NCBI GenBank assembly: GCA_016213445.1
Contig: JACRAJ010000001.1
Location: 206,203 to 270,202, forward strand
DNA: 64,000 nt
Direction of reading: 5' to 3'
DNA from: Candidatus Azambacteria bacterium
Lineage (GTDB): Bacteria > Patescibacteriota > Minisyncoccia > UBA10092
Shown: positions 7,085 to 61,491 of the stretch, piece after piece
Numbering within the stretch: the stretch's first letter is position 1
How the letters are laid out: each line of letters begins with the position of its first letter
Position numbers and translations under genes: made by a program
The notes under the pieces: model-generated
The model's input: only the letters and a program-made list of their open reading frames with translations
What the model was told of the DNA's origin: nothing
Database searches by the model: none

Positions 7085-7429
7085 ATGAAAATAAAAACTT
7101 TTTTGATTTTTTCGTTATTTTTTGTTATATTGTTAAGTGCTGGCGCGGCGTCGGCGGATATAACGCTTCTAAATCCTCTGGGAAGCGCCGGAAGCGATAT
7201 CCCCACTTTAATTAACAGGATTGCCGTGTGGCTTTTGGAAATCGGAACCATTATCGCCACAATCGTAATTCTCTGGGCGGCAATTATTTTTATGACAAGC
7301 GGGGGCAATAAGGAAAGAGTGACGAAGGCGCGGCAAATGTTATGGTATGCTATAATCGGAATTGTGATTTTGCTGGTAGCCACGGGGTTGACGAGCGTTA
7401 TTCAAAAATTTTTAAGCGGCCAATTTTAA
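7085..7429 (+). CDS. TrbC/VirB2-like small 'pilin' (Patescibacteria pilin family)
   Basis: Signal peptide, then LINRIAVWLLEIGTIIATIVILWAAIIFMTSGGNKERVTKARQMLWYAIIGIVILL: two TM helices around an SGG..K..AK motif. Confidence 0.75.
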   Translation: MKIKTFLIFSLFFVILLSAGAASADITLLNPLGSAGSDIPTLINRIAVWLLEIGTIIATIVILWAAIIFMTSGGNKERVTKARQMLWYAIIGIVILLVATGLTSVIQKFLSGQF

Positions 7430-8966: not shown

Positions 8967-9947
8967 ATGAAATATTTTGAATCCGTAAAATTAAATTACA
9001 AAAAAATATCGATAACGGCGGTTTTGGCAATGGCGTTTTTCGCGCTGTCTTTAAATAATTTTATACCGACTGCTCACGCGCAATACGAGGGCGATGTTGG
9101 CGGATATTCTATGGGCGATGCCGGCGGGTATTCCGTTGGCGACGCGGGAGGTTATGATTATTCAACCGGCGACGCAGGCGGTTATTCATCCGTTAGCGAT
9201 GCGGGAGGATATTCTTATCCTTCCGTTAGCGACGCCGGCGGTTATAGTTATCCTTCTGCGAGCAATGGCAGCTATAGCTATCCATCTGTAGGCGGTTCAG
9301 AAAGTTATTATTATCCGGCAAGCGGCGTAGGCTATTATGCTTTTTCTCCGGTATTTTATACCGGAACTTACGATTATCCCGCATCGAACATAAACTCTTA
9401 CAGCTTCCCTTCGGTTTCTTATCCGTCAACTTACGATTATCCCGCATCGAACATAAACTCTTACAGCTTCCATTCGGTTTCTTATCCGTCAAATCAAGGC
9501 CATGCCGCGACTGTCGGTTCATATAATTTTCCTTTAACCGCTTATGCCTCGACTTATAATTATCCGGCATCGGACATAGGCTCTTATAGTTTTCCTTCGA
9601 TTTCTTATCCGGGAACTTACGATTATCCGGCATCTTATAATGTCGGAAGCTTATATTATCCATCGACGTCATTTTTTGGCGATTATTCCACTCCGGTAGC
9701 GGAAGCGGCAACGGAAATTCGTCCGGTTGCCGCTGTTCCGACAGGTCCCGAAGATATTTTACCGTTGATTTTACCGGCAGGATTGATTTTATCCGTTGCC
9801 GTGTATTTAATATTATTTAAGGTTCGCTTCGGCGGCAGGCTTTCTTTTGCCGGCGCTTACGCGAATGTCGTTCTTGAAAGAAAAATCAGGAAAATAAAAA
9901 GAGAAGAATTGAAATCAGGCGCAAACGAAAATGAAAATAACTTTTAA
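8967..9947 (+). CDS. Secreted Tyr/Ser/Pro/Gly-rich repeat protein with C-terminal sorting-signal-like segment
   Basis: Signal peptide ...PTAHA/QY; GDAGGYS repeats; four ~21-aa TYDYPASNINSYSFPSVSYPS-type repeats; C-term AAVPTGPEDILPLILPAGLILSVAVYLILFKVRFGGR; 17-nt overlap with sortase gene. Confidence 0.7.
   Translation: MKYFESVKLNYKKISITAVLAMAFFALSLNNFIPTAHAQYEGDVGGYSMGDAGGYSVGDAGGYDYSTGDAGGYSSVSDAGGYSYPSVSDAGGYSYPSASNGSYSYPSVGGSESYYYPASGVGYYAFSPVFYTGTYDYPASNINSYSFPSVSYPSTYDYPASNINSYSFHSVSYPSNQGHAATVGSYNFPLTAYASTYNYPASDIGSYSFPSISYPGTYDYPASYNVGSLYYPSTSFFGDYSTPVAEAATEIRPVAAVPTGPEDILPLILPAGLILSVAVYLILFKVRFGGRLSFAGAYANVVLERKIRKIKREELKSGANENENNF
9366..9491 (+). repeat. Near-perfect 2 x 63-bp tandem repeat inside the Tyr/Ser-rich gene
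   Basis: ACTTACGATTATCCCGCATCGAACATAAACTCTTACAGCTTCC(C/A)TTCGGTTTCTTATCCGTCA twice (period 63 = 21 codons); two diverged units follow. Confidence 0.9.
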
Positions 9948-10557
9948 TCTTAAAAAAGAACTCGCAATATTTTTCGCGATATTAATAGCGATTAGCGCCG
10001 CGATTTATCTGTTGTTAAACGCGGGAGCTTATTTTTCCATTTTCCGCTATAACGATAACGGATCGATTTTCGATTTAAAAATTTCATCGGCAAAACAAAC
10101 GGCCAAAAACGGCGAAAATTATTATCTCCACATTCCCAAAATCGGCGTAACGGCCCCCATTGTTTTTCCAAAAGACGAGTCCGATAAAAGCGTCTTGGAC
10201 AGCCTTGAAGAGGGGGTCGGGATTTATCCGGGATCGCAGTTGCCCGGAGAAATCGGCCGTTCGGTAATTTTGGGCCACAGCTCAAGAGCGGATTGGTATA
10301 AAGGAAAATTTGCCTATATTTTTGCTCTTTTGGGCAAGCTGGAAAAAGGCGATGAATTTTACATAGTTTCCGAAAATAAAAAATTGGTTTATAAAGTTTT
10401 TGCCAAGGATATTTTAACGCCGGACAAAACCGACGAGCTTCTTTCGAAAGTTCCGGAAAATGAATCGGAAGTCGCTTTAATTACCTGCTGGCCGATAGGT
10501 TCTTCTTCATTGCGAACCGTCGTTTTTGCGAAGTTTGATCGTGAAGAGAAATTGTAA
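9931..10557 (+). CDS. Sortase family transpeptidase
   Basis: N-terminal TM; YLHIPKIGVTAPIV; catalytic His (VILGHSS), Cys (LITCWP) and Arg (LRTVVFA) in the expected order. Confidence 0.85.
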   Translation: MKITFNLKKELAIFFAILIAISAAIYLLLNAGAYFSIFRYNDNGSIFDLKISSAKQTAKNGENYYLHIPKIGVTAPIVFPKDESDKSVLDSLEEGVGIYPGSQLPGEIGRSVILGHSSRADWYKGKFAYIFALLGKLEKGDEFYIVSENKKLVYKVFAKDILTPDKTDELLSKVPENESEVALITCWPIGSSSLRTVVFAKFDREEKL

Positions 10558-14341: not shown

Positions 14342-15450
14342 AAACTAAGATTAGCATCGGCTTCCAATTTTTTCCAGCCGTCTTTCGCAGGTTTTTTGCG
14401 AAGATAATTGAAGTATCCGGCGGCGGCGATCATCGCGGCGTTGTCAGTGGCGCAAGATAAATCCGGCGCGAAGAAGGGGATTCCGCATGAATTGATTTTT
14501 GCGGCCATTGCTTCCCGCAGTTTTTTATTCGCCGAAACGCCGCCGGCAATCATCACGATTTTGGGATTAAAGTTTTTAACCGCCCGGGCGGTTTTAGCCG
14601 TTAAAACGTCAATTACGGCGTTTTGAATTTCCGCGGCCATTGCCGGTTTTATTTCTTCGGGCGGGTATTTTTTTATCAAATCGTTGTATAAATATAAAAC
14701 GGCGGTTTTGAGGCCGGAAAAGGAAAAATTATAATCTTTGGAATTGATCATTGGCCGCGGCAGTTCAATATGTAATTTGTGTTTTGTAATTTGTAATTTT
14801 TTTCGGACTTCAGACTTCGGATTTGAGATTTTTGCCGCTTCTGCGGCAATAGCCGGGCCTCCGGGGAATCCCAATCCCAAAAGCCGCGCGGTCTTGTCGA
14901 AGCATTCGCCCGCCGCGTCGTCCAAAGTTCGCCCGATGATTTTATATTTTCCGTAATCGCTCATTAAAATCAGTTCCGTATGTCCCCCGGAAACAATGAG
15001 GATGACAGATGGAAAAATCCCGCCTATCCTTTCACTTAGCCAATTAGAGAAAATATGTCCCTCCATATGATTAACTCCAATTATAGGTTTCCGAAACCTA
15101 TAAGCCAAAGCGCGGGCGGCGTTGACGCCGATTAAAAGCGACGGCATCAAACCCGGCCCTCGCGTTACTGCGATAAGGTCTATATCACCGAGTTTGGTTT
15201 TTGCCGCGCTTAAAGCGCCCTTTATCGTGGGCATGATTTTTTCCAAATGGGCGCGGGAAGCGAGATTCGGCACGATGCCGCCGAATTTTTTATGAATGGC
15301 CACTTGGGAATATGATACGTTCGACAAGATCGAAAAACCCGCCTGCGCCGAGGCTTCGGTGGGCAGGGACGGATTGGCAAATCCGCCCTTTGCTTCCACC
15401 ACCGCCGCGGCGGTGTCATCGCATGATGTTTCTATTCCAAGAATTCGCAT
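14338..15450 (-). CDS. tsaD: tRNA N6-adenosine threonylcarbamoyltransferase TsaD with low-complexity insertions
   Basis: MRILGIETSCDDTAAAVV, GVNHMEGH, GGVSAN; start moved to ATG 15450 (the longer ORF runs into the toxin remnant); ATGA overlap with valS start. Confidence 0.93.
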   Translation of the reverse strand: MRILGIETSCDDTAAAVVEAKGGFANPSLPTEASAQAGFSILSNVSYSQVAIHKKFGGIVPNLASRAHLEKIMPTIKGALSAAKTKLGDIDLIAVTRGPGLMPSLLIGVNAARALAYRFRKPIIGVNHMEGHIFSNWLSERIGGIFPSVILIVSGGHTELILMSDYGKYKIIGRTLDDAAGECFDKTARLLGLGFPGGPAIAAEAAKISNPKSEVRKKLQITKHKLHIELPRPMINSKDYNFSFSGLKTAVLYLYNDLIKKYPPEEIKPAMAAEIQNAVIDVLTAKTARAVKNFNPKIVMIAGGVSANKKLREAMAAKINSCGIPFFAPDLSCATDNAAMIAAAGYFNYLRKKPAKDGWKKLEADANLSL

Positions 15451-23557: not shown

Positions 23558-24025
23558 ATGAGAAGAAAAACAAAAATAAAAAAAGTTGAAAATATTGATC
23601 CGAAGTACGGCAGTCCCTTGGTGGGCAAATTTGTCAATTACATCATGCGCCAAGGGAAAAAATCCACGGCCCAAAGGGTGGTTTACGGCGCTTTTGATAT
23701 TATAAAAGAAAAAACCAAGGGCGATCCGATGGAATTGTTCGAAAAGGCGATTAAAAACATCACGCCGGCTTTGGAAGTGAAATCCCGCCGTGTCGGTGGC
23801 GCCAATTATCAGGTGCCCCAGCCGGTGCGTCCGGACAGGAAAATCCAGCTGGCTTTCAGGTGGGTTATTAACGCCGCCAAAGCGAAAAAAGGCAAGTCGA
23901 TGGCCGAAAAGTTGGCCGAAGAATTTATGCTGGCGGCAAACAACGAAGGCGCGGCTATCAAGAAAAAACTGGATACCCACAGAATGGCGGAAGCGAACAG
24001 AGCGTTCGCGCATTTTAGCTGGTAA
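23558..24025 (+). CDS. rpsG: 30S ribosomal protein S7
   Basis: [46 protein letters not shown]...GGANYQVP; start moved to ATG 23558 by comparison with the usual S7 N-terminus. Confidence 0.95.
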
Positions 24026-24110
24026 ATTTGCGACATGTAATATGCAACATGCAACATGCAACATGTGACATATAATAAAAAATAATTTTTTGTCTCTTGT
24101 CTCTTGTCAC
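24024..24110 (+). repeat. Right arm of the inverted repeat bracketing rpsG
   Basis: AAATTTGCGACAT...(CATGCAA)x3...AATAAAAAATAATT...TGTCTCTTGTCTCTTGTCAC; starts inside the rpsG stop codon, ends 6 nt before fusA ATG. Confidence 0.85.
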
Positions 24111-24116
24111 TAAACT

Positions 24117-26234
24117 ATGGTTGTTAAACAAAATTATCCAATCGAAAAAGTCCGCAATATCGGCATTATCGCTCATATTGACGCCGGAAAAACAACGGTT
24201 TCCGAGCGTGTTTTGTTTTACACCGGAATTTCCCATAAAATCGGCGAGGTTCACGAGGGCGCGGCCGTTATGGACTGGATGGAGCAGGAAAGAGAGCGCG
24301 GCATCACAATTACCGCCGCGGCCACGACCGCTTTCTGGACGCCGACGCGATACGTTGCCGCCGACGCCGGCAAAGAAAACGAACATCGCATCAATATTAT
24401 AGACACCCCCGGGCACATTGATTTTACCGTTGAAGTTCAGCGGTCATTGAGGGTTTTAGACGGCGCGGTGGTGGTTTTCGACGGCGTTGCCGGCGTTGAG
24501 CCGCAATCGGAAACCGTGTGGCGCCAGGCCGACAAATACGGCGTGCCGCGAATTTGTTTTATCAACAAGCTCGACCGAACGGGCGCGTCTTTTGAAAAAA
24601 GTTTGCAGTCGATTCGCGAGCGGCTTACTTTAAACGCCGTTCCGGCGAATTTTCCGATGGGCCTTGAAGACAAATTCGAAGGCGTTGTCGATTTAATTGA
24701 AAACAAGCTTGTTCGTTTTTTTGGCGAACACGGGGAAAAATTGGAATTTTCGGAAATTCCCGAAAATTTAAAACAAGAAGCCGAGAGCGCCCGGAAACAT
24801 TTGATTGAAAAAGTCGTTGAAACCGATGACAAATTGATGGAAAAATATCTTGAAGGCGCGAAAATTTCGAGCGATGAAATCAGGCGGGCGATGAGAAGCG
24901 CGGTGATTGCCAACAAATTGGCGCCGGTTTTTTGCGGCTCGGCTTTGAAAAATAAGGGAGTTCAATTGATGCTTGACGCGGTTGTCGATTATTTGCCAAA
25001 TCCGATTGAATTGCCGCCGACCAAAGGAATCGCTCCGAGAACGGGCGAAGAATTGGAACGCCGGCCGGATGAAAACGAGCCGTTCACCGCTTTGGCTTTT
25101 AAAATCGCCACCGATCCTTATGTCGGTTCGCTTACTTTTTTCCGCGTTTACTCCGGAAAATTATCCAAAGGCTCCTATGTTTTAAATTCAACCAAAGATT
25201 CCAAAGAACGGATCGGCAGAATTTTATTGATGCACGCCAACGAAAGGGAGGAGCTTGATGAAATTAAAGCCGGGGAAATCGGCGCGGCCGTGGGTTTGAA
25301 AAACACCACCACGGGCGACACGCTTTCCGATGAAGAACATCCGATAATTTTGGAGCAGATTGTTTTTCCGGAACCGGTTATTTCCCAAAAAATCGAACCG
25401 AAAACCAAGGCCGACCAGGAAAAAATGGGCATGGCTTTGAAGCGTTTGTCCGATGAAGACCCGACTTTCAGGATTAAAACCGATGCCGACACGGGCGAAA
25501 CCATTATTTCCGGCATGGGCGAACTTCATCTTGAAATCATCGTCGATCGGATGCAAAGGGAATTCAAAGTCGGCGCCAATATTGGCCGGCCGCAGGTGGC
25601 ATATAAAGAAACAATCAAGAAAACCGCCGAAGCCGAAGGAAAATACGTAAGGCAATCCGGCGGCCGCGGCCAATACGGCCATGTTTGGTTGAGAGTCGAA
25701 CCCGGCGAACGCGGTTCCGGCTTTGAATTTATGAATGAAATCAAGGGCGGCATCATTCCGCAGGAATTTATTCCGGCTACTGAAAAGGGCGTTATCGAAG
25801 CGATGGAAAAAGGCGTAAAAGCCGGTTTTCCCGTGGTTGATATGAAAGTGGCTCTTTACGACGGCTCTTTCCATGAAGTCGACTCTTCCGAAGCCGCTTT
25901 CAAAATTGCCGGCTCCATGGCTTTCCAAGAAGCCGCGAGGCGTGCCACCGTGATTTTGCTTGAGCCGATTATGAAAGTCGAGGTGGTTGTGCCCGAGCAG
26001 TTTTTCGGCGATATCACCGGAGATTTGAATTCCAAGCGCGGCAAAATTGAGCAAATGTCCGAACGGGCGATGTTGAAAGTGATTGACGCCAAAGTGCCTC
26101 TTTCGGAAATGTTCGGCTACGCCACGAAATTGCGCTCGATGAGCCAAGGCCGCGCGAGCTATACGATGGAATTCGACCACTACGAAGAAGTGCCGAACAA
26201 CGTCGCGGAAATGATCATCGCCGGAAAAAAATAA
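24117..26234 (+). CDS. fusA: Elongation factor G
   Basis: [27 protein letters not shown], domains II-V; 705 aa. Confidence 0.98.
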
Positions 26235-26237
26235 CTT

Positions 26238-26368
26238 TAAAATTTCTAATTATTCTAATTTCTAATTAACCTAATCAAATCTCAAATCCCAATGACTAAA
26301 CCTTAGACATTAAAAATTGGAGCTTGATTAGAAATTAGGTCAATTAGAGCAATTAGGTTAATTTTAAA
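26238..26368. repeat. Family C-like AT-rich periodic imperfect palindrome between fusA and the next ORF
   Basis: Arms built from ..CTAATT / AATTAG.. units (TTAAAATTTCTAATTATTCTAATTTCTAATTAACCTAAT ... ATTAGGTCAATTAGAGCAATTAGGTTAATTTTAA); centre CAAATCCCAATGA resembles 36535-36548. Confidence 0.65.
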
Positions 26369-36020: not shown

Positions 36021-36509
36021 ATGTTGAACAAAAGAAATCCCAATATTAAAAGAGGTTTCCAAAGGGAAAAATCTGAATTTGATCAGAAAGTTTTGGATAT
36101 CAGAAGGGTAACCCGAGTTGTGGCCGGCGGAAAAAGGTTTCGTTTTCGAGCCACGATTGTTTTAGGCGACCATAAAGGGCGCGTTGGCGTTGGCATTGCC
36201 AAAGGCGCCGATACTTCGGAAGCCATAGAAAAAGCCGGGCGGAGCGCGAAAAAGAATCTGATTTTTGTTCCGATGAAAAACAGCACCATTCCCCATGAAG
36301 TTGTCGGCAAATTTTCCAGCGCCGTGGTATTGTTCAGGCCGGCCGGGGAAGGCAGGGGCATTGTGGCCGGCGGCCCGATTCGGGCTGTGGCGAGTTTGGC
36401 GGGCATAGGCAATGTCACGTCCAAGATTTTGGGAACGACCACCAACAAATTAAACAACGCTCGGGCGGCGATAGAAGCGCTGAAAAAATTAAAATCTAAA
36501 CGACAATAA
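36021..36509 (+). CDS. rpsE: 30S ribosomal protein S5
   Basis: VLDIRRVTRVVAGGKRFRFRATIVLGD, GIGIAKG. Confidence 0.96.
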   Translation: MLNKRNPNIKRGFQREKSEFDQKVLDIRRVTRVVAGGKRFRFRATIVLGDHKGRVGVGIAKGADTSEAIEKAGRSAKKNLIFVPMKNSTIPHEVVGKFSSAVVLFRPAGEGRGIVAGGPIRAVASLAGIGNVTSKILGTTTNKLNNARAAIEALKKLKSKRQ

Positions 36510-36638
36510 TTTTCAAATTTACAATTTACAATTTTCAAATCCCATTGAATTTTCAATGAATCAATGTTCCAAACATTTGAAAATTAAAACATTAAATCAT
36601 TGATTGAAAATTGAGAATTGGAAATTGGAAATTTTTAA
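36510..36638. repeat. Family C AT-rich heptad-periodic imperfect palindrome occupying the slot where rpmD (L30) normally lies
   Basis: TTTCAAATTTACAATTTACAATTTTCAAATCCCATTGAATTTTCAATGAATCAATG ... CATTAAATCATTGATTGAAAATTGAGAATTGGAAATTGGAAATTTTT; ends 4 nt before rplO ATG. Confidence 0.7.
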
Positions 36639-38362: not shown

Positions 38363-38960
38363 AATCGCCATAGTTATTTTGGGCCGGCCCGGCTCGGGCA
38401 AAGACACGCAGGCAAAACTTTTGGCGAAAAAATTCGGGTTGGTTCACATAATTTCAAGCAAAGTTATTGAAAAAGCTTTAAAATCCCGCGAAACAAACAT
38501 TAAGCTTGGAGGCAGGGTTTATAATCTCGAACGCGAGCGCCGCTTGCAAAAAAGCGGTTCTTTAAATACTCCCGAATTCGTTTTGGCGCTTATCAAATCG
38601 GAAATAGAATCGGCGGCTTTGCGCGGTCGGGGGATTGTGATGAGCGGCTCGCCGAGAACTTTAAAAGAATTGAAGGGCGAGTGGCCGCTGATTGAAAAAT
38701 TATACGGAAAAAATATTTTCGCTTTTAACGTGATTATCAGCCCCAAGGAATCTTATATCAGGAATTTGAAGCGGCGCCGCAAAGATTTGCCGGAGCTCGA
38801 CACTCGGAAACTTATAAAAAAACGATTGGCGGTTTTTATGAACGAAACTTGGCCGGCGATAAAACTGCTGAAATCCAAAAAAATGATTATCGACATCGAC
38901 GGCGAACGGCCGATAATGAAAATCCACAAAAATATTTTGAAAATATTGTCGCTAAAATAA
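38349..38960 (+). CDS. adk: Adenylate kinase-like nucleoside-monophosphate kinase (divergent)
   Basis: P-loop ILGRPGSGKDTQ, GSPRT in place of GFPRT, conserved secY-adk-map position; ATG 38349 (GTG 38343 also possible). Confidence 0.75.
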   Translation: MKGSKIAIVILGRPGSGKDTQAKLLAKKFGLVHIISSKVIEKALKSRETNIKLGGRVYNLERERRLQKSGSLNTPEFVLALIKSEIESAALRGRGIVMSGSPRTLKELKGEWPLIEKLYGKNIFAFNVIISPKESYIRNLKRRRKDLPELDTRKLIKKRLAVFMNETWPAIKLLKSKKMIIDIDGERPIMKIHKNILKILSLK

Positions 38961-39107
38961 AAACAACCCCGTATTCGTTTTCTCGCGGGTTGTGAGCCCG
39001 AGCGGGCATGGTTCTTCCGCCGAAGGCGGAAGAGAGCGAGGGCGAACCCTTTCATTTCCCTCGCAGGGGGAAATGAAAAAAGCGAGAAAGTGAATGCGGG
39101 GTTGTTT
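38961..39107 (+). repeat. Family B structured intergenic element, copy 1
   Basis: Outer stem AAACAACCCCGTATTC / GAATGCGGGGTTGTTT; core GCGGGTTGTGAGCCCGAGCGGGCATGGTT-[hairpin, loop GAA]-AGAGCGAGGGCGAACCCTTTCATTTCCC...GGGAAATGAAAAAAGCG; homologous to 47229-47370 inverted. Confidence 0.85.
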
Positions 39108-39122
39108 GTAAAGAAAGAAAAG

Positions 39123-40261: not shown

Positions 40262-40280
40262 AACTTTTTATGTCTCTTTT

Positions 40281-40425
40281 TTCAAACCAATATAAATAAT
40301 TTTCCTCGCGCATTCGGCCGCCCAGCGGCGGCCTCATTGTCCGATGAAAGCGTTTTGCTCCGCTATGCGGAGACCATGCCAAAACGCTTTCATAAGCTTC
40401 GTAAAATTATTTATATTGTTTTGAA
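40281..40425 (+). repeat. Family A structured intergenic element, copy 1
   Basis: 23-bp outer stem TTCAAACCAATATAAATAATTTT / AAAATTATTTATATTGTTTTGAA (1 mismatch); hp1 GGCCGCC-CAGC-GGCGGCC; 14-bp stem ATGAAAGCGTTTTG / CAAAACGCTTTCAT enclosing hp2 CTCCGC-TAT-GCGGAG. Confidence 0.9.
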
Positions 40426-40465
40426 ATGAAAAAAGCGAAAAAATAAAATAATTGATTTTTTTCGC

Positions 40466-44575: not shown

Positions 44576-44576
44576 A

Positions 44577-44675
44577 TCCCGTTAGAAATTTTATGTTATC
44601 AACGCAACAAGAATTGAGATTAGTAATTATTAATGCTGTTATAATTAAGAAAAAAACAGCAGATTTCTAACGGGA
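44577..44675 (+). promoter_or_regulatory. Intercistronic hairpin bridging the mltG stop to the ligA start codon
   Basis: 13-bp perfect stem TCCCGTTAGAAAT (44577-44589) / ATTTCTAACGGGA (44663-44675); last paired base is the A of the ligA ATG; inner hairpin GCTGTT...AACAGC. Confidence 0.6.
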
Positions 44676-46774
44676 TGAAAACATCTTTAACTAAAAACGA
44701 AGCGAAAGAAAGGATTGAAAAATTAAAGAAGGCGATAAATCGTTATCGCTATTCGCGATTGGTTTTAAATAAAGAGTTAATTTCTCCCGAAGCCGAAGAT
44801 GCTCTTAAAAAAGAGCTTTTCGATTTGGAAACCCAGTTTCCGGAATTGATCACCCTCGATTCGCCGACGCAAAGAATCGGCGGAAAGCCGCTTAAAAAAT
44901 TTCCCAAAATCCGCCATTTTACGCGCATGCTTTCTTTCAACGACGCCTTTTCGCAAGAAGATATGAAAGATTGGCGCGACAGAAATTTAAAACTATTGCC
45001 CCGCGGCGCCAAGATCGATTTTTACTGCGAACTGAAACTCGACGGTTTGGCAATCAGCATGGTTTACGAAAACGGCATTTTAAAAACCGGCGCGACGCGC
45101 GGCGACGGGCTTGTCGGTGAAGACGTCACTAACAACATCAAAACTATCGAAGCCATTCCTCTTTCCTTATTGCCCAAAGAAGAGGTTTTGGAAAATTTGG
45201 AGAAATTAAAGCTTTATCATATTGCCAATCATTTGAAAAAATCATGGCCGAAAACAATCGAAGCGCGAGGCGAGGTTTTTATGAATAAAAAAGATTTTGA
45301 AGCGCTCAATAGAGAGCAGGCCAAAAAGGGCCTTCAAGTTTACGCCAATCCCAGAAATGTGGCCGCGGGATCGATTCGCCAATTGGATCCGAAAATCACC
45401 GCCGCCCGCCGCCTTGATTCTTTCTCCTATATTTTAGTCACCGATCTCGGCCAAAAAACCCATGAGGAAGAACATTTAATTTTGCGCGCATTGGGTTTTA
45501 AAACCAATCCCAATAACAAACGACTCAATTCGCTTGATGAAGTTTTTGAATTTCGCGATTATTGGGCCAAACATCGCGACAAGTTGCCGTTTGAAATCGA
45601 CGGCATTGTGGTGATGGTAAATTCGGAAGAATATTTGAAGCGGCTTGGCGTTGTCGGCAAGGCGCCGCGGGGCGGAATCGCCTATAAATTTTCCGCCAAA
45701 GAATCGGAAACAATCGTTGAAGATATCATTGTCCAAATCGGCCGAACGGGCGTATTGACGCCGGTAGCAATTCTTAGGCCGGTTCAAATCGGCGGCGTTA
45801 CCGTAAGCCGCGCCACATTGCACAATGAAGACGAGATAAAGCGCTTGGGGCTGAAAATCGGCGACACGGTTATCGTCGGCCGGGCCGGCGACGTGATTCC
45901 CGACGTCGTGAAAGTTTTGAAAGAACTGCGAACCGGACGCGAAAAAAAATTTCATTTTCCAAAAGAATTTTGCGGCCAAAAAGTGATAAGAATTTCCGGA
46001 GAAGCGGCGCATAAAATCGCGCATCCGGAAAAATGCGAATTGGTAAATCGCCGGCGGCTTTATCATTTCGCTTCCAGAGCGGCTTTCGATATGGAAGGCG
46101 TCGGCCCGAAAATTATCGACGCGCTTATGGATAGTAATCTCATTTCCGACGCCGCCGATTTATTTAATTTGGAAGAAGGCGATCTCTTGCCGGTTGAACG
46201 TTTCGCTGAAAAATCAGCCAAAAACGTTATTGCCGCCATTAAAAAAAGCAAAATAATCGGTTTGTACAAGTTTATTTTCGCTTTGGGCATTGCGCGCATT
46301 GGCGAGGAAACGGCGGTTGATATAGGTAAAAAATTGATCGAACGCAAAACTATCAAAAGCCCGCAAAATGTTATTGAAGCCGCGGAGAGTTTTGAATTGG
46401 AAGATTGGCAAGCGATTCCCGATATCGGCCCCAAAACGGCTGAAAGCATTTTTGAATATTTCAAAAATAAAACTAATATCGCCTTCATTAAAAAACTTGA
46501 TGACGCCGGCATAAAAATAATTTCGCCGAAGATTGGCGCGGCCGCAACGAAGCTGAAAGGAAGAGTTTTTGTTTTAACAGGCGGTTTGGAAACCTTGACG
46601 CGGGAAGACGCTAAGAGCAAAATTAGGGCAGCGGGAGGCGACATATCTACGTCTGTCAGCCCGTCGGTTGACTATGTCGTGGCCGGATCCGAACCCGGAG
46701 AAAAATACGAAAAGGCGAAAAAATTGGGAGTGAAAATAATCAATGAAAAAGAATTTTTGAAAATGGTAAAATAA
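44675..46774 (+). CDS. ligA: NAD-dependent DNA ligase
   Basis: CELKLDG (adenylation Lys), OB fold, Zn finger, HhH repeats, C-terminal BRCT (VFVLTGGLETLTREDAK). Confidence 0.96.
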   Translation: MKTSLTKNEAKERIEKLKKAINRYRYSRLVLNKELISPEAEDALKKELFDLETQFPELITLDSPTQRIGGKPLKKFPKIRHFTRMLSFNDAFSQEDMKDWRDRNLKLLPRGAKIDFYCELKLDGLAISMVYENGILKTGATRGDGLVGEDVTNNIKTIEAIPLSLLPKEEVLENLEKLKLYHIANHLKKSWPKTIEARGEVFMNKKDFEALNREQAKKGLQVYANPRNVAAGSIRQLDPKITAARRLDSFSYILVTDLGQKTHEEEHLILRALGFKTNPNNKRLNSLDEVFEFRDYWAKHRDKLPFEIDGIVVMVNSEEYLKRLGVVGKAPRGGIAYKFSAKESETIVEDIIVQIGRTGVLTPVAILRPVQIGGVTVSRATLHNEDEIKRLGLKIGDTVIVGRAGDVIPDVVKVLKELRTGREKKFHFPKEFCGQKVIRISGEAAHKIAHPEKCELVNRRRLYHFASRAAFDMEGVGPKIIDALMDSNLISDAADLFNLEEGDLLPVERFAEKSAKNVIAAIKKSKIIGLYKFIFALGIARIGEETAVDIGKKLIERKTIKSPQNVIEAAESFELEDWQAIPDIGPKTAESIFEYFKNKTNIAFIKKLDDAGIKIISPKIGAAATKLKGRVFVLTGGLETLTREDAKSKIRAAGGDISTSVSPSVDYVVAGSEPGEKYEKAKKLGVKIINEKEFLKMVK

Positions 46775-46779
46775 AAAGT

Positions 46780-46920
46780 ATATTGCCAAATAATAATTTT
46801 CCGAAGCTTATGAAAGCGTTTTGGCATGGCTCCCCCGCAGGGGGACAAAACGCTTTCATCGGACAATGAGCCTCGCGCTGGCGAGGCGAATGCGCGAGGA
46901 AAATTATTATTTGGCAATAT
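46780..46920 (-). repeat. Family A structured intergenic element, copy 3 (inverted orientation)
   Basis: Perfect 21-bp outer stem ATATTGCCAAATAATAATTTT / AAAATTATTATTTGGCAATAT; same core as 40281-40425 but hp1 = GCCTCGC-CAGC-GCGAGGC and hp2 = TCCCCC-TGC-GGGGGA. Confidence 0.9.
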
Positions 46921-46928
46921 AACAATAT

Positions 46929-47228: not shown

Positions 47229-47370
47229 GAAAATTTTTTAATATTCATCCTCACGCTTTTTTCATTTCCCCCAGCGCGGGAAATGAAAGGGTTCGCCCTC
47301 GCTCTTGCTTCGCAAACCGTGCCTGCTCGGGCTCACAACCCGCTTTGAGGATAAATATTAAAAAATTTTC
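47229..47370 (-). repeat. Family B structured intergenic element, copy 2 (inverted orientation)
   Basis: 25-bp outer stem GAAAATTTTTTAATATTCATCCTCA / TGAGGATAAATATTAAAAAATTTTC (one C-A mismatch); core matches 38961-39107 inverted; variable hairpin TTGC-GAA-GCAA. Confidence 0.85.
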
Positions 47371-48828: not shown

Positions 48829-49358
48829 TCGAATACGCCGCGAATATATTAAACAACTGGCAATCTTATATTATAAAACTTGGCGGTTCCGAATGGATTT
48901 TCGGCCTCAAATTGCTTGGAGGTTTTTTAGTGCTTGTTTTTGGCGGTTTGGCCGCGCTTTTGATTATAAAAATGCAGATATTCGACAAGTGGTTTAAAAC
49001 CACCGGCAATTTTCTTTTGATTCAAAAATTTCCGAAAAGGCATTTGAATAAATCATGGCAAAAAATCGCAACGCGTTTAAGTAAAAATGATGAGGCTAAT
49101 TTGCGGCTGGCTTTAATAGAGGCCGACAATCTTTTCGACAATTTATTGAAGCAAATGGGACTTCCGGGGGAGTCGATGGCCGATCGGCTGAAACTTGTCA
49201 ATTCTTCCCAAATTGCCAATATTGACGCAATTTGGCGCGCTCATAAATTGAGAAACCAAATCGTGCACAGCGCCGATTATCATGTTGATAGAAACGAAAT
49301 CGAATTCAACGTTCAGGCCTACGAAAAGGCGCTGAAAGAATTGGAGTTTATCGATTAG
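48825..49358 (+). CDS. Hypothetical single-TM protein translationally coupled to gatA
   Basis: ATGA overlap with the gatA stop; TM LLGGFLVLVFGGLAALLII; helical C-terminal domain; no recognisable family. Confidence 0.55.
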   Translation: MIEYAANILNNWQSYIIKLGGSEWIFGLKLLGGFLVLVFGGLAALLIIKMQIFDKWFKTTGNFLLIQKFPKRHLNKSWQKIATRLSKNDEANLRLALIEADNLFDNLLKQMGLPGESMADRLKLVNSSQIANIDAIWRAHKLRNQIVHSADYHVDRNEIEFNVQAYEKALKELEFID

Positions 49359-49361
49359 ACA

Positions 49362-49508
49362 AAAAACAAAAACAAAATCATTTTCCTCGCGCGCTCGTCC
49401 CGCCAGCGCGGGACTCGCTGTCCGATGAAAGCATTTTAGTCCCGCTTTGCGGGACACCGCGCTATAACGCCTTCATAAGCTTCGGAAAATGATTTTGTTT
49501 TTGTTTTT
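49362..49508 (+). repeat. Family A structured intergenic element, copy 4 (most diverged)
   Basis: Perfect 23-bp outer stem AAAAACAAAAACAAAATCATTTT / AAAATGATTTTGTTTTTGTTTTT; hp1 GTCCCGC-CAGC-GCGGGAC, hp2 GTCCCGC-TTT-GCGGGAC; central stem keeps 11 of 14 pairs. Confidence 0.85.
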
Positions 49509-49531
49509 ATGACACTGTTGCAATTTTTCTG

Positions 49532-49607
49532 CGCGGTGGAAGGGATTCGAACCCTCGATCTCCTCCGTGACAGGGAGGCGCTTTAAACCGGGCTAAGCTA
49601 CCACCGC
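49532..49607 (-). tRNA. tRNA-Asp (anticodon GTC)
   Basis: GCGGTGGTAGCTTAGCCCGGTTTAAAGC, anticodon stem CCTCC/GGAGG with loop CTGTCAC, T-arm GAGGGTTCGAATCCCTT. Confidence 0.9.
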
Positions 49608-60105: not shown

Positions 60106-60250
60106 TTCAAACCAATATAAATAATTTTTCTCGCGCATTCGGCCGCCCAGCGGCGACCTCATTGTCCGATGAAAGCGTTTTGCTCCGCTACGCGGAGACC
60201 ATGCCAAAACGCTTTCATAAGCTTCGTAAAATTATTTATATTGTTTTGAA
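60106..60250 (+). repeat. Family A structured intergenic element, copy 2
   Basis: About 97% identical to 40281-40425 including the outer stem; differences are a C-to-T in TTTTCCTCG, a G-to-A in the hp1 3' arm (C-A on plus, U-G on the transcribed minus strand) and a T-to-C in the hp2 loop. Confidence 0.9.
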
Positions 60251-60294: not shown

Positions 60295-61491
60295 TCATGC
60301 TTTATTTTCAATCTCTTCTTTTATTTTTTCAACGAATTTTTCCAATTTCATTGCGCCCAAGTCGCCCTTGCCTCTTTGGCGAACCGCCACTGAACCATCT
60401 TTTTCTTCTTTTCCGCCAACAACAAGACTGTAGGGGATTTTTTCAATTTCGGCGTTGCGGATTTTTTTGCCAATGGTTTCGTTTGAGTCGTCCGCTTCGG
60501 CGCGAATGTTGTTTTTTGCAAGCTCGGCGCGGATTCTTTCGGCGTAATTTTCATTTTGCGATCCTATCGGCAAAATTCTTGCCTGAACCGGCGAGAGCCA
60601 CAAAGGAAAAGCGCCCTGGTAATTTTCAACCAAAATTCCGATGAATCTTTCAAACGAGCCGAAAACGGCGCGGTGGATCACAACCGGCCTCTCTTTTTTT
60701 CCTTCCGGGCCCGTAAAACTTAAGTTGAATTTTTCGGCAAGATTAAAATCGACTTGGATGGTGCCGAGTTGCCATGATCGGCCCAGAGAATCTTTGACGT
60801 GAATTTCTATTTTAGGGCCGTAAAAGGCTCCTTCTTTAGGCTGTAATTCGTATTTTATTTTATTTTTTTTCAAGGCTTGGGTCAGAGCATCCTCGGCTTT
60901 ATCCCATAAATTTTTATCGCCCATGGCTTTATCCGGGCGAGTGGCGAGATAATAAGCCGTTTTAAATTCGAAAATGGCGTAAAAATTATTTATCAAACTT
61001 ATCAACCCGTCGATTTCATCAAGCATCTGTTCGGGGCGGACGTAGATATGCGCGTCATCCATTGTGATTTGTCTCACTCTGAACAATCCGTTTAAAACCC
61101 CGGAGAGCTCTTTCCGGTGAAGCCGGCCGATTTCCGAAAATCGCAAAGGCAAGTCGCGCCAGCTTCTGGTTTTAGTCGAATAAACAATGGCGCTTTCGGG
61201 GCAATTCATCGGCTTTAAAACAAAAGTCTGGTTGTCGACTTTCAAAGTGAACATCAGGTCTTTATAAAACTGGAAATGGCCGGATTTTTCGAAAAGGTCT
61301 TTTCTGACCATGATGGGAGTTGATATTTCCTGATAATCTTGTTTGTCGAGCGCTTCGCGGATCGCTTTTTCAAGTTCTTTGAAAATTATCATCCCTTTGG
61401 GATGCCAGAAAGGAGCGCCCGGAGATATTTCATGGAAAGAATATAAATCAAGCTGCGCGCCCAATTCCTGATGACTCAATAATTTTTTCAT
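60295..61491 (-). CDS. thrS: Threonyl-tRNA synthetase, catalytic core plus anticodon-binding domain only (no TGS or editing domains)
   Basis: Starts at ...HQELGAQLDLYSFHEISPGAPFWHPKG (equivalent to E. coli ~residue 240); PMNCPES, TMDDAHIY, IHRAVFGS zinc/class II motifs; 398 aa; only 21 nt to the dnaE stop. Confidence 0.9.
   Translation of the reverse strand: MKKLLSHQELGAQLDLYSFHEISPGAPFWHPKGMIIFKELEKAIREALDKQDYQEISTPIMVRKDLFEKSGHFQFYKDLMFTLKVDNQTFVLKPMNCPESAIVYSTKTRSWRDLPLRFSEIGRLHRKELSGVLNGLFRVRQITMDDAHIYVRPEQMLDEIDGLISLINNFYAIFEFKTAYYLATRPDKAMGDKNLWDKAEDALTQALKKNKIKYELQPKEGAFYGPKIEIHVKDSLGRSWQLGTIQVDFNLAEKFNLSFTGPEGKKERPVVIHRAVFGSFERFIGILVENYQGAFPLWLSPVQARILPIGSQNENYAERIRAELAKNNIRAEADDSNETIGKKIRNAEIEKIPYSLVVGGKEEKDGSVAVRQRGKGDLGAMKLEKFVEKIKEEIENKA

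Follow-up and report, generated by a model that had tools for sequence, protein, structure and literature searches.

Palindromic elements with a covarying three-way-junction core at gene junctions of Parcubacteria, probably MITE-like inserted DNA

Genomes of CPR/Patescibacteria are about 1 Mb in size, tightly packed, and thought to be poor in repetitive DNA. The window analyzed here, a stretch of 64,000 nucleotides from a Candidatus Azambacteria genome (contig JACRAJ010000001.1 of assembly GCA_016213445.1), carries four copies of an intergenic element that we call family A as well as copies of a related element, family B, at the following positions:

40281..40425, plus strand: family A copy 1, complete (covariance model 153.6 bits; fold -61.5 kcal/mol, z -9.0), between the ruvX stop codon (40261) and the ruvX terminator plus GT2 promoter, sense to the flanking genes (genes by Pfam)
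40280..40303, plus strand: A-rich 5' outer arm of copy 1, 24 nt, pairing with 40403-40426
40316..40333, plus strand: hp1 of copy 1, a 7-bp GC stem (GGCCGCC/GGCGGCC) with the invariant CAGC loop
40344..40393, plus strand: long hairpin of copy 1 (predicted structure), with the 14-bp stem P3 formed by 40344-40357 and 40380-40393
40358-40372, plus strand: hp2 of copy 1, capping P3
40373-40379, plus strand: 7-nt 3' bulge ACCATGC in the long hairpin of copy 1
40403..40426, plus strand: T-rich 3' outer arm of copy 1, 96% complementary to the 5' arm, with 99 nt between the arms
60106..60250, plus strand: family A copy 2, differing from copy 1 at 3 positions and with the same arms, flanked by the miaA start (60086) and by a class II aminoacyl-tRNA synthetase gene that stops at 60295, antisense to both
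46779..46921, minus strand: family A copy 3, inverted, with perfect 24-bp arms, occupying the whole gap from the ligA stop (46774) to the gatC start (46929)
49362..49508, plus strand: family A copy 4, with perfect 25-bp arms, three mismatches in P3, and an hp1 stem identical to its hp2 stem, after a 177-aa ORF (stop at 49358) and facing tRNA-Asp (49531-49607, minus strand)
38958..39110, minus strand: family B copy between adk and map, matched over its full length by the family A model (33.5 bits, E 8e-6)
47229..47370, plus strand: family B copy between gatC and gatA

A sequence-only reading of the window had already located the four family A copies, and we confirmed all of them in the sequence and with a covariance model built from public relatives, which matched them at 142-155 bits (40282-40424, 60107-60249, and 49363-49507 on the plus strand, 46779-46921 on the minus strand). 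The core motif GTCCGATGAAAGCRTTTT has four exact matches in the window and five matches with up to three mismatches, against 0.29 expected from shuffles; a candidate fifth copy at 10179 is a 2-mismatch match inside a sortase gene (ORF 9931-10557) and was dismissed as chance. Fold z-scores of the four copies range from -7.7 to -9.8 on both strands compared to shuffles. Their hp1 stems, hp2 stems, and CAGC loop are as that reading described, and the 14-bp stem around hp2 is present as well, though not intact in copy 4. The outer stems, given there as 21-23 bp of three unrelated sequences, measure 23-25 bp and share their core-proximal 10-15 bp (...AATAATTTTCC or ...AATCATTTTCC), so that the distal parts alone differ; copies 1 and 2, at unrelated loci, even have the whole outer stem in common, mismatch included. 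The native ruvX terminator is retained just downstream of copy 1.

Public genomes and metagenomes hold 64 distinct full copies of family A, spread over about 80 groundwater metagenome contigs and two MAGs, one of Parcubacteria and one of Azambacteria. These elements are non-coding and 135 to 176 bp long (mostly about 140-150 bp). Their GC-rich core spans about 95 nt and is predicted to form a three-way junction of hp1 (loop CAGC) and the 14-bp stem P3; hp2 sits on top of P3, which also has a 7-nt ACCAUGC bulge. Around the core lies an A/T-rich inverted repeat of 17-31 bp (median 24 bp) that forms a near-perfect duplex. A U-tract is missing, as had been observed, yet all 58 copies in the arm-polarity count have an A-rich 5' arm and a T-rich 3' arm. 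We rejected a small ORF opened by ATGAAAGCG... because changes in hp2 length shift its reading frame and therefore leave no conserved peptide, in agreement with the earlier view that no ORF survives.

The covariation of the helices, first proposed from the four window copies, is borne out by an alignment of 57 distinct copies in which 94.1% of cells are paired, compared to 41-51% in slid controls. None of 500 shuffles reached any of the observed pairing measures, and two-sided changes occur at 31 of 50 pairs, including 6 of 7 pairs in hp1 and 5 of 6 in hp2. P3 hardly varies in sequence (8 of its 14 pairs are the same in all copies), the junction strands are almost invariant, and hp1 is disrupted in many copies. 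Mean pairwise identity across copies amounts to 62.5% in the distal arms versus 95.3% in the internal junctions, and the arm sequence is conserved across the family in the core-proximal 12-16 bp only, with complementarity always present. At orthologous loci, junctions and P3 are 91-99% identical and the arms mostly 83-97%, compared to 65-88% in the flanks, while hp1 and hp2 at 29-79% fall below the flanking genes. The arms are conserved per locus and not across loci, and the small hairpins hp1 and hp2 recombine between copies as modules. Covariation shows that a single-stranded fold matters, be it as a DNA hairpin or cruciform or as a hairpin in any transcript. It is not proof of a strand-specific functional RNA, and much of it in hp1 and hp2 is the swap of ready-made hairpin modules, not stepwise compensatory substitution.

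A C.A mismatch in copy 2 had been taken as a hint of folding at the level of minus-strand RNA. The mismatch is present, and the 57-copy alignment contains 87 A.C cells versus 19 G.U cells on the plus strand, but 34 of the former are one recurrent C.A mismatch at a fixed arm position (34/57 copies), and the hint is thus not decisive. We discarded the assignment of a putative RNA strand from these counts, given that one position dominates, that recent single changes go both ways, and that the inference clashes with the mostly sense orientation of the copies toward their flanking genes.

Family A copies were seen between genes only. Their stem lies against the stop codon and the start codon that follows, and upstream ORFs often continue into the A-rich arm, by as much as 16-21 nt. 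Nearly every element has at least one gene 3' end facing it (6 convergent contexts versus 1 doubtful divergent one). Copies are present in essential operons like gatCAB, adk-map, rpmC-like/rpsQ-like, and the str operon. As the sequence-only reading had stated, both orientations occur, and counted by independent locus they are barely constrained (12 sense, 7 antisense, 5 both). The five latter are orthologous loci at which the core is found either way, e.g., L004 and L065, where the core is inverted and the arms are unchanged (checked by eye). Antisense copies are intact, window copies 2 and 3 included, and this nearly free orientation argues against a strand-specific RNA role. Loci L011 and L088 have one flank only in common, and the elements serve as recombination points.

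Comparison with relatives that lack the element, as initially proposed, revealed empty junctions at ligA/gatC, adk/map, and miaA/synthetase. Where copy 3 lies in the window, ligA and gatC are separated by a 4-nt spacer in the syntenic relatives L096, L097, and L101 (GatC 77-85% identical). Likewise, L096 and L097 have an ATGA overlap of the gatC stop with the gatA start, the adk and map genes of L103, L104, and L107 overlap, and the miaA and synthetase genes overlap in L051 or lie about 2 nt apart in L014. The same junction in L022 contains only a 3'-end remnant of the element, and another degraded, one-ended remnant is found in L106. In L101, the position of copy 4 is taken by an ordinary GC-rich bidirectional terminator. 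The covariance model found no match over 66 kb of syntenic relatives. Conversely, the window lacks an element at sites that are filled elsewhere, and the content of one junction changes from genome to genome between family A, family C, a different palindrome, and no element at all. Target duplications are inconsistent in length between sites: the family B element at gatC/gatA in the window is bordered on either side by ATGA(A)TTT (about 8 bp duplicated), ATGG(T)AGAAAAA is duplicated around the copy that splits overlapping genes in L091 (about 12 bp), and L084 shows a TTAA-like duplication. Copies 1 and 2 and L079 show no visible duplication, with A-rich low-complexity flanks blurring the boundaries, and no conserved tetranucleotide flanks the copies.

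Family B has the architecture of family A (its copy at 38958-39110 folds at -87.7 kcal/mol), and the two share unpaired motifs, the CCAGCG loop and the ACC(A/G)UGC bulge. Unpaired junction bases that are so strongly conserved in both families are what a functional RNA or ribozyme would display, and they count against a reading as inserted DNA. Altogether, at least three families (A, B, and C) of 100-170-bp palindromic elements are found at stop/start junctions.

Several of these features are those of MITEs. Family A is small, non-coding, and dispersed (4 copies in the window besides the public ones), and it shows presence/absence polymorphism at ligA/gatC, gatC/gatA, adk/map, miaA/synthetase, and other junctions. 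However, its terminal inverted repeats do not keep a common sequence across the family, and their outermost portions are in fact the least conserved of the whole element. Variable ends around a conserved internal core are the reverse of a classical MITE recognized by a DDE transposase.

The bcr1 repeat of the Bacillus cereus group is mobile, transcribed, about 155 bp long, and flanked by a constant 5-bp direct repeat, and compensatory changes maintain its cruciform-like structure (PMC3184786). Family A resembles it in size, in its non-coding and intergenic nature, in a distribution that differs among related strains, and in its covarying fold, but differs by inconsistent target duplication, hypervariable hairpin-tip modules, a CPR host, and the lack of any sequence similarity. 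The same source describes SPRITE, a mobile repeat that resembles host terminators and is biased to gene 3' ends, and lists Rickettsia palindromic elements (RPE) among small repeats (PMC3184786). Unlike SPRITE, family A has no GC stem with T-run and is found within operons, and unlike RPE it sits between genes only, though ORFs often reach into its A-rich arm. RPE are palindromic selfish elements of 105-146 bp that form several families in the reduced genomes of host-dependent bacteria, where they are tolerated in or beside essential genes and often inserted in frame inside genes.

The Correia/NEMIS elements of Neisseria are 100-155-bp MITEs with terminal inverted repeats of about 26 bp that are co-transcribed with neighboring genes; their long RNA hairpins are reportedly processed by RNase III (work ascribed to Mazzone 2001 and De Gregorio 2002-2003). 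Their terminal repeats have a conserved sequence with TA duplication, an IHF site, and promoter elements, whereas family A is conserved in its core but not in its distal arms, and cleavage by RNase III would be an extrapolation. Integron attC sites are imperfect palindromes of 57-141 bp that directly follow ORFs, are conserved in structure and not in sequence, and are used as folded single strands. Their conserved outer boxes and variable center are the opposite of the family A layout, and they occur in cassette arrays beside intI, whereas syntenic housekeeping genes flank family A. Finally, REP/BIME elements are likewise intergenic palindromes and recombination substrates found in either orientation, and they stabilize or punctuate operon mRNAs. 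Family A does not belong with them by size or architecture, since REPs are single GC-rich hairpins of 20-40 nt with a GTAG head and a RAYT link, while family A is four times larger and built as a three-way junction.

We therefore favor, with a probability of roughly 60%, the reading of family A as non-autonomous, MITE-like palindromic inserted DNA of Parcubacteria akin to bcr1, Correia, RPE, and SPRITE elements. While the sequence-only reading could not place it as a MITE, its empty sites, remnants, and at least three sister families are MITE-like behavior. Family A is a previously uncatalogued family and a variant of known small mobile repeats, and nothing so far shows a new functional RNA. 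A full-text literature search on repeat elements of CPR, Parcubacteria, or Patescibacteria did not turn up a description of it, and neither blastn against phage and plasmid collections nor a pattern search of viral contigs gave a match. Pattern matches in L003, L006, L013, L018, L040, L046, and L082 (Lachnospiraceae, TARA, and others) lie in coding DNA and were discarded as chance.

According to this MITE-like reading, the element inserts into the few bases between a stop codon and the neighboring gene or into their overlap, and it would be mobilized in trans by an enzyme. A resident copy then persists through speciation, its core inverts by recombination between the arms, hp1 and hp2 are swapped with other copies through the conserved junction sequences, and some copies decay to remnants. 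Selection on pairing, DNA-level templating, and module exchange probably maintain the fold together. A mechanism that regenerates complementarity, which the sequence-only reading gave as the alternative to selection on structure, may be at work. Operon transcripts with a copy are predicted to form an AU duplex of about 24 bp, a putative RNase III substrate, and its cutting would explain why copies are tolerated inside essential operons. Conservation of the core could reflect recognition by the mobilizing or processing machinery. Among the 40 of 68 window ORFs scanned with Pfam (a set without the ribosomal-protein block), none encodes a transposase, integrase, or reverse transcriptase. No autonomous insertion sequence with the same ends was detected in these ORFs or in about 700 kb of loci, and no long element with separated halves in the latter.

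It seems unlikely to us that family A is instead a functional cis-acting structured RNA of operon transcripts, i.e., an intercistronic processing or insulating module whose 24-bp outer duplex would be an RNase III site separating cistrons, or whose core would be a self-cleaving ribozyme or protein-binding motif. Such a role would fit junction bases that are unpaired yet nearly invariant while the stems covary, the motifs common to family B, the higher identity of junctions and P3 than of the flanking genes, and the position of the stem next to stop and start codons. It would also suit the copies inside essential operons, where strong polarity is impossible, and the median arm length, given that RNase III requires two helical turns of duplex; one orthologous group even lies immediately upstream of an rnc-like gene (judged from its N-terminal sequence). 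However, antisense copies are intact and orientation is nearly free, hp1 is broken in many copies, and close relatives that have neither the element nor a replacement for it at the same junctions indicate that it is dispensable. Only tRNAs reached the gathering score of Rfam in the window, and the best matches at permissive E-values on both strands stayed at or below 17.6 bits compared to thresholds of 34.7-72 bits, in line with the earlier failure to recognize any known RNA family. Hammerhead (CUGAUGA...GAAA) and hairpin-ribozyme cores did not fit by inspection either. Less probable still in our view is a hypertrophied bidirectional intrinsic terminator that spreads in a SPRITE-like manner, with the A-rich arm, the GC-rich structured tip, and the T-rich arm terminating transcription in both directions. 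The arm polarity, which holds on either strand, the preference for facing gene 3' ends, and the canonical terminator of L101 at the position of copy 4 are consistent with it, as are the ordinary terminators of the host, long palindromes of A-tract, GC hairpin, and T-tract with tips (CCCCGC..GCGGGG) that resemble hp2. Yet many copies lie between translationally coupled genes of essential operons, where efficient termination would be lethal, copy 1 still has the ruvX terminator behind it, and a simple terminator scan called no copy, with no GC stem found immediately before a T-run.

We also give very little credence to family A as a site for structure-reading DNA machinery, modeled on integron attC sites or HUH substrates (IS200/IS605, REP/RAYT), with the folded single strand as the form that would undergo recombination or transposition, or with copying via an RNA intermediate. 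Such machinery would be the reason why pairing and not arm sequence stays conserved, and it would agree with the invariant junction motifs beside the hairpins, with several insertions without target duplication, with the fixed C.A mismatch in the arm, and with one-ended remnants. On the other side, there is no intI, HUH, or RT gene near the copies examined or in the scanned window ORFs, attC R''/R' boxes (RYYYAAC/GTTRRRY) are absent by inspection from the arm ends, which vary, copies occur without a conserved tetranucleotide flank, and core housekeeping genes in conserved synteny, not cassettes, surround them. An outward promoter in the right end gave weak matches only, in AT-rich sequence. 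A wider proposal, also unlikely though less so, is that families A, B, and C form a new structure-defined class of mobile elements of CPR whose core is read as a folded single strand, possibly by a DNA enzyme or reverse transcriptase, or is itself active as a self-cleaving or processing RNA that makes insertion harmless. This would explain conserved pairing and junction bases without conserved arm sequence as well as insertions exactly on stop/start overlaps.

These palindromic elements at stop/start junctions, some of them inside essential operons, break translational coupling, invert in place, and enlarge intergenic space. Anyone who assembles or annotates CPR MAGs, or who searches these genomes for structured RNAs, therefore has to reckon with them. 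The invariant internal junction, hypervariable paired hairpins, and locus-specific arms of family A reverse the textbook MITE layout and make it a good test case for RNA-level selection versus DNA-level palindrome maintenance. If its core were catalytic or read as a folded strand, this would be a new mechanism.

At L091, copy 3, and family B copy 1, the arms may have been lengthened by fold-back copying of the flank, a pattern of few cases in A-rich sequence. Two hairpins at ruvX/GT2 were considered and rejected as excision footprints: that of L104 corresponds to the native terminator, kept in the window downstream of copy 1, and that of L103 is a recurrent TATAG(A/G)TTTC(C)GAAA(T/C)CTATA palindrome. 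Insertion into pre-existing hairpins was similarly discarded, as the empty sites at ligA/gatC, rpmC-like/rpsQ-like, and adk/map have no palindrome; a pre-existing one of 18 bp is seen at L074 only, in comparison with L080 and L083.

The four copies of family A, a palindromic intergenic element of about 145 nt, are present at the places in the window where they had been read from the sequence alone:

40281-40425: copy 1, between ruvX (left) and a GT2 glycosyltransferase gene (right), sense to the genes
60106-60250: copy 2, between miaA (left) and a class II tRNA synthetase gene (right), antisense to the genes
46779-46921, minus strand: copy 3, between ligA (left) and gatC (right), antisense to the genes
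49362-49508: copy 4, between a 177-aa ORF (left) and tRNA-Asp on the minus strand (right), sense to the ORF

The window contains four exact matches to the motif GTCCGATGAAAGCRTTTT; a candidate fifth copy at position 10179 is a chance two-mismatch match inside coding sequence. Folding energies of the copies are -61 to -77 kcal/mol, and against dinucleotide shuffles the z-scores on either strand are -7.7 to -9.8; the proposed anatomy of nested hairpins inside an outer stem is borne out. An A/T-rich outer stem of 23-25 bp (the arms) encloses a core with three conserved junction strands, the hairpin hp1 (7-bp stem, CAGC loop) and the 14-bp stem P3, which is capped by the hairpin hp2 and carries a 7-nt bulge, ACCATGC. 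P3 is present as described except for 3 mismatches in copy 4, but the outer stems are not unrelated between copies as had been claimed, since their core-proximal 10-15 bp are common to them. Copies 1 and 2 differ at 3 positions and have identical arms at unrelated loci, which points to recent copying or gene conversion. That the element is no known RNA family agrees with an Rfam 15 search of the window, which returned only tRNAs at gathering score; at permissive thresholds on both strands, no family came near threshold for the elements.

A 21-22-base gapped pattern was searched against genomes, viral contigs and metagenomes and found real family A copies in the Parcubacteria MAG JACPHB01 (4 contigs) and in Candidatus Azambacteria LCEQ01, none in viral contigs, and 88 matching metagenome stretches, nearly all from groundwater. 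With chance coding matches removed, the family comprises 93 occurrences and 64 distinct full elements. The window is itself Azambacteria DNA, since an Azambacteria protein at NCBI, encoded on a 280-kb contig, is 100% identical to its GatC. A covariance model built from public relatives (R1) recovers every window copy at 142-155 bits and also picks up divergent copies missed by the pattern. In an alignment of 57 sequences (A1), the RNAalifold consensus keeps pairing through two-sided changes in 27 of 49 pairs. Under an explicit structure, two-sided change is seen in 31/50 pairs and standard pairs fill 94.1% of cells, compared to 41-51% with partners slid by 1-3 columns, and 0 of 500 shuffles reach any observed pairing measure. 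The helices thus co-vary as claimed, and this covariation is not in doubt. Two-sided changes are mostly swaps of the transversion type (A-U to U-A, G-C to C-G) with few one-sided intermediates, and hp1 is broken in many copies (e.g., GGTCGCC CAGC GGCTCCC). The fold is probably kept by pairing constraints together with exchange at the DNA level.

R1 also matches, over its full length, two copies of a sister family, B, with relatives among the loci from public genomes and metagenomes that we compared with the window (L-numbers):

38958-39110, minus strand: family B copy at adk/map (R1 match 38963-39105, 33.5 bits)
47229-47370, plus strand: family B copy at gatC/gatA (R1 match 47230-47369, 28.3 bits)
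L004:2483-2626, L032:13432-13572, L074:6133-6274 and L092:12370-12531: family B relatives

Family B elements (~142-160 bp) have nested hairpins on a plan like that of family A around an unlike core: variable A/T arms of 25-29 bp, a first hairpin with a CCAGCG loop, and a second hairpin followed by ACC(A/G)TGC. Both this loop and the hairpin-plus-ACC(A/G)TGC motif are common to the two families.

The junctions filled in the window were compared with those of relatives, that is, contigs syntenic with it (GT2, galT, TIM, yceG, ligA, gatC, gatA and the 177-aa ORF) whose GatC and RuvX homologues share 77-86% identity with the window's. In this comparison, of a kind that the sequence-only reading had proposed, the relatives lack the element: ligA and gatC are spaced by 4 nt, and at the two junctions filled by family B in the window, adk and map overlap, while gatC and gatA overlap (ATGA) in L096 and L097 and lie 17 nt apart in L101. 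R1 gave no match over 66 kb of these relatives. A flank-based search of the collected loci added filled/empty pairs in both directions, including sites filled in L042, L079 and L091 that are empty in the window. Judged by these comparisons, the family A and B copies are insertions. ATGA(A)TTT stands on either side of the gatC/gatA copy, ATGG(T)AGAAAAA is duplicated around the copy in L091, and in L084 ATAA...TTAT stands where two stop codons overlapped as TTAA; no target duplication was seen for copies 1 and 2 or L079. Empty sites are mostly without a palindrome, so the arms arrive with the element; only L074 differs, in that an 18-bp palindrome, made up of the final codons of two convergent genes, is already present at a site that L080 and L083 have filled. 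Remnants are left at ruvX/GT2 in L106 (5' part alone) and at miaA/synthetase in L022 (3' end alone). In these genomes gene junctions seem to take up insertions in general; relatives have small genes inserted at junctions of the same kind:

L096:3432-3833
L099:5664-5966 (also in L100)
L101:3114-3719
L106:1988-2551

These genes encode DUF559 (endonuclease-like), PDDEXK_3 and PaaX_M/Cas2-like proteins, e.g., a PDDEXK_3 gene between ligA and gatC.

We consider the family A copies to be mobile, non-autonomous palindromic elements of Parcubacteria, at a probability of about 60%. Pfam scans of 40 window ORFs (68 called) showed no transposase, integrase or RT domain; no element with separated halves turned up among the collected loci, phage and plasmid collections gave no match, and full-text literature searches on CPR repeat elements brought up no account of such elements in CPR bacteria. 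Known mobile palindromic elements include bcr1, SPRITE, RPE, Correia and ERIC; bcr1 is about 155 bp long, mobile and transcribed, with its structure kept by compensatory changes, while SPRITE is terminator-like (Delihas review, PMC3184786). That the element had not been recognised as a known RNA family or MITE is borne out with respect to Rfam, but family A shares the size, copy number and insertion polymorphism of MITEs and differs in terminal repeats without sequence conservation. It therefore works like a MITE or bcr1-type element without being a plain member, and we file it as distinct from plain MITEs within an already known general kind. The sequence-only reading was right in its observation and in part of its interpretation.

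Inserted copies evidently keep changing. The core lies in either orientation at five orthologous loci:

L004/L031 versus L065
L005 and relatives versus L050/L086
L021 versus L026
window copy 1 versus L047
L012/L074 versus L063

It is flipped also between L080 and L083 at the convergent-gene locus. Distal arms and both flanks of L004 and L065 remain visibly alike despite the flip, which by such comparison is an inversion by exchange within the inverted repeat.

Sequence identity of element parts at orthologous loci (flanking DNA 65-88% identical) and as the mean over all copies
Junctions plus P3: 91-99%; mean 95.3%
Distal arms: 83-97% in 7 of 11 pairs; mean 62.5%
hp1 plus hp2: 29-79%; mean 59.5%

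The hairpins thus change faster than the adjoining genes, yet stay paired. Across A1, the same few hairpin types recur in all combinations (hp1: GGTCGCC/GGCGACC, GTCCCGC/GCGGGAC; hp2: TTCGCC/GGCGAA, CCCCGC/GCGGGG), and we read hairpin modules as probably exchanged between copies via the near-identical junction sequences. L011:1327-1468 and L088:458-602 are alike in the right flank (99.6% protein identity) and differ in the left flank and most of the core; in L001:6111-6255, the 5' half is foreign. Such one-sided replacement suggests ectopic recombination between copies, and the flank shared by L011 and L088 makes the elements likely rearrangement points as well. Some copies carry an additional 33-nt hairpin, CCCCGTATACAACTTGTTGTTATACGGGG, within the 5' junction strand (L010, L022, L037, L049 and others; e.g., L010:2241-2418) or a much longer hp2 (L058:1323-1498, L010:511-683), so the core tolerates added hairpins at fixed points.

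Other palindromes occupy similar junctions:

L032:6220-6320, and right of the family A copy in L007 (about 7215-7264): family C
26228-26365, 36508-36634, 24018-24110 and 44576-44676 (window): intergenic palindromes or short-unit repeats
15080-15104 (window), L060:11867-11897, L033:728-752 and L103:3368-3394: perfect palindrome TATAG(G/A)TTTC(C)GAAA(C/T)CTATA

Family C, a further sister family, has 29-bp A/T arms enclosing the GC core GGGGGCGAGCC(A/G)TTCGCCGAA(A/G)GCGAATGGG; at its L032 junction, L091 has a family A copy instead, and L034 and L073 have no element. Besides it, several AT-rich repeat-armed palindromes lie at further junctions. The four window repeats lie within or beside the ribosomal-protein/str operon and before ligA, with units including TTCTAATT and GCAACAT x3 ... 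TGTCTCT x3, and 26228-26365 occupies a junction where L032, L034 and L073 have family A. The perfect palindrome recurs in intergenic DNA of several genomes and resembles the operator of a dimeric regulator.

A simple ORF-based gene call places 36 distinct copies in sense and 13 in antisense orientation between co-directional genes, 6 in convergent contexts and 1, doubtfully, in a divergent one. The stem starts -21 to +11 nt from a stop codon in 53/67 cases, and a start codon lies within 40 nt of the stem in about 30 of 53 measured distances. Among the 58 copies whose outer stem could be scored, every 5' arm is A-rich (median A/(A+T) 0.75), which is true of both strands because the arms are palindromic. 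When copies are grouped by homologous flanking proteins into 32 independent loci, 12 have sense copies only, 7 have antisense copies only and 5 have both, confirming that both orientations occur; orientation relative to transcription is thus at most weakly constrained. This nearly free orientation, the intact antisense copies and the dispensability of the element in close relatives speak against an RNA function tied to one strand. The surplus of A.C over G.U cells on the plus strand of A1 (87 versus 19) would favour action as a minus-strand RNA; however, 34 of the 87 come from a single arm position at which C.A recurs, near-identical loci show recent single changes in both directions, and the sense strand is more commonly plus. 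The invariant junction bases, partly common to family B, nevertheless argue that something reads the family A core. Recognition of the core in the form of a folded single strand, or catalysis by the core itself, seems unlikely.

Copies inside essential operons exclude efficient termination, and a simple terminator scan called 0 family A copies. A near-perfect 24-bp AU duplex in a transcript is a textbook RNase III substrate, and cleavage of transcripts at the ~24-bp AU duplex would release the start codon that lies downstream. In these genomes, an ordinary terminator is a long bidirectional palindrome of an A-tract, a GC hairpin (e.g., CCCCGC-loop-GCGGGG) and a T-tract with 14-23 paired positions:

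L009:3440-3469
L036:5151-5188
L050:9915-9962
L070:973-1017
L092:2499-2543
L101:8306-8343
others

Their tips resemble hp2, and in A/T polarity their arms match those of family A.
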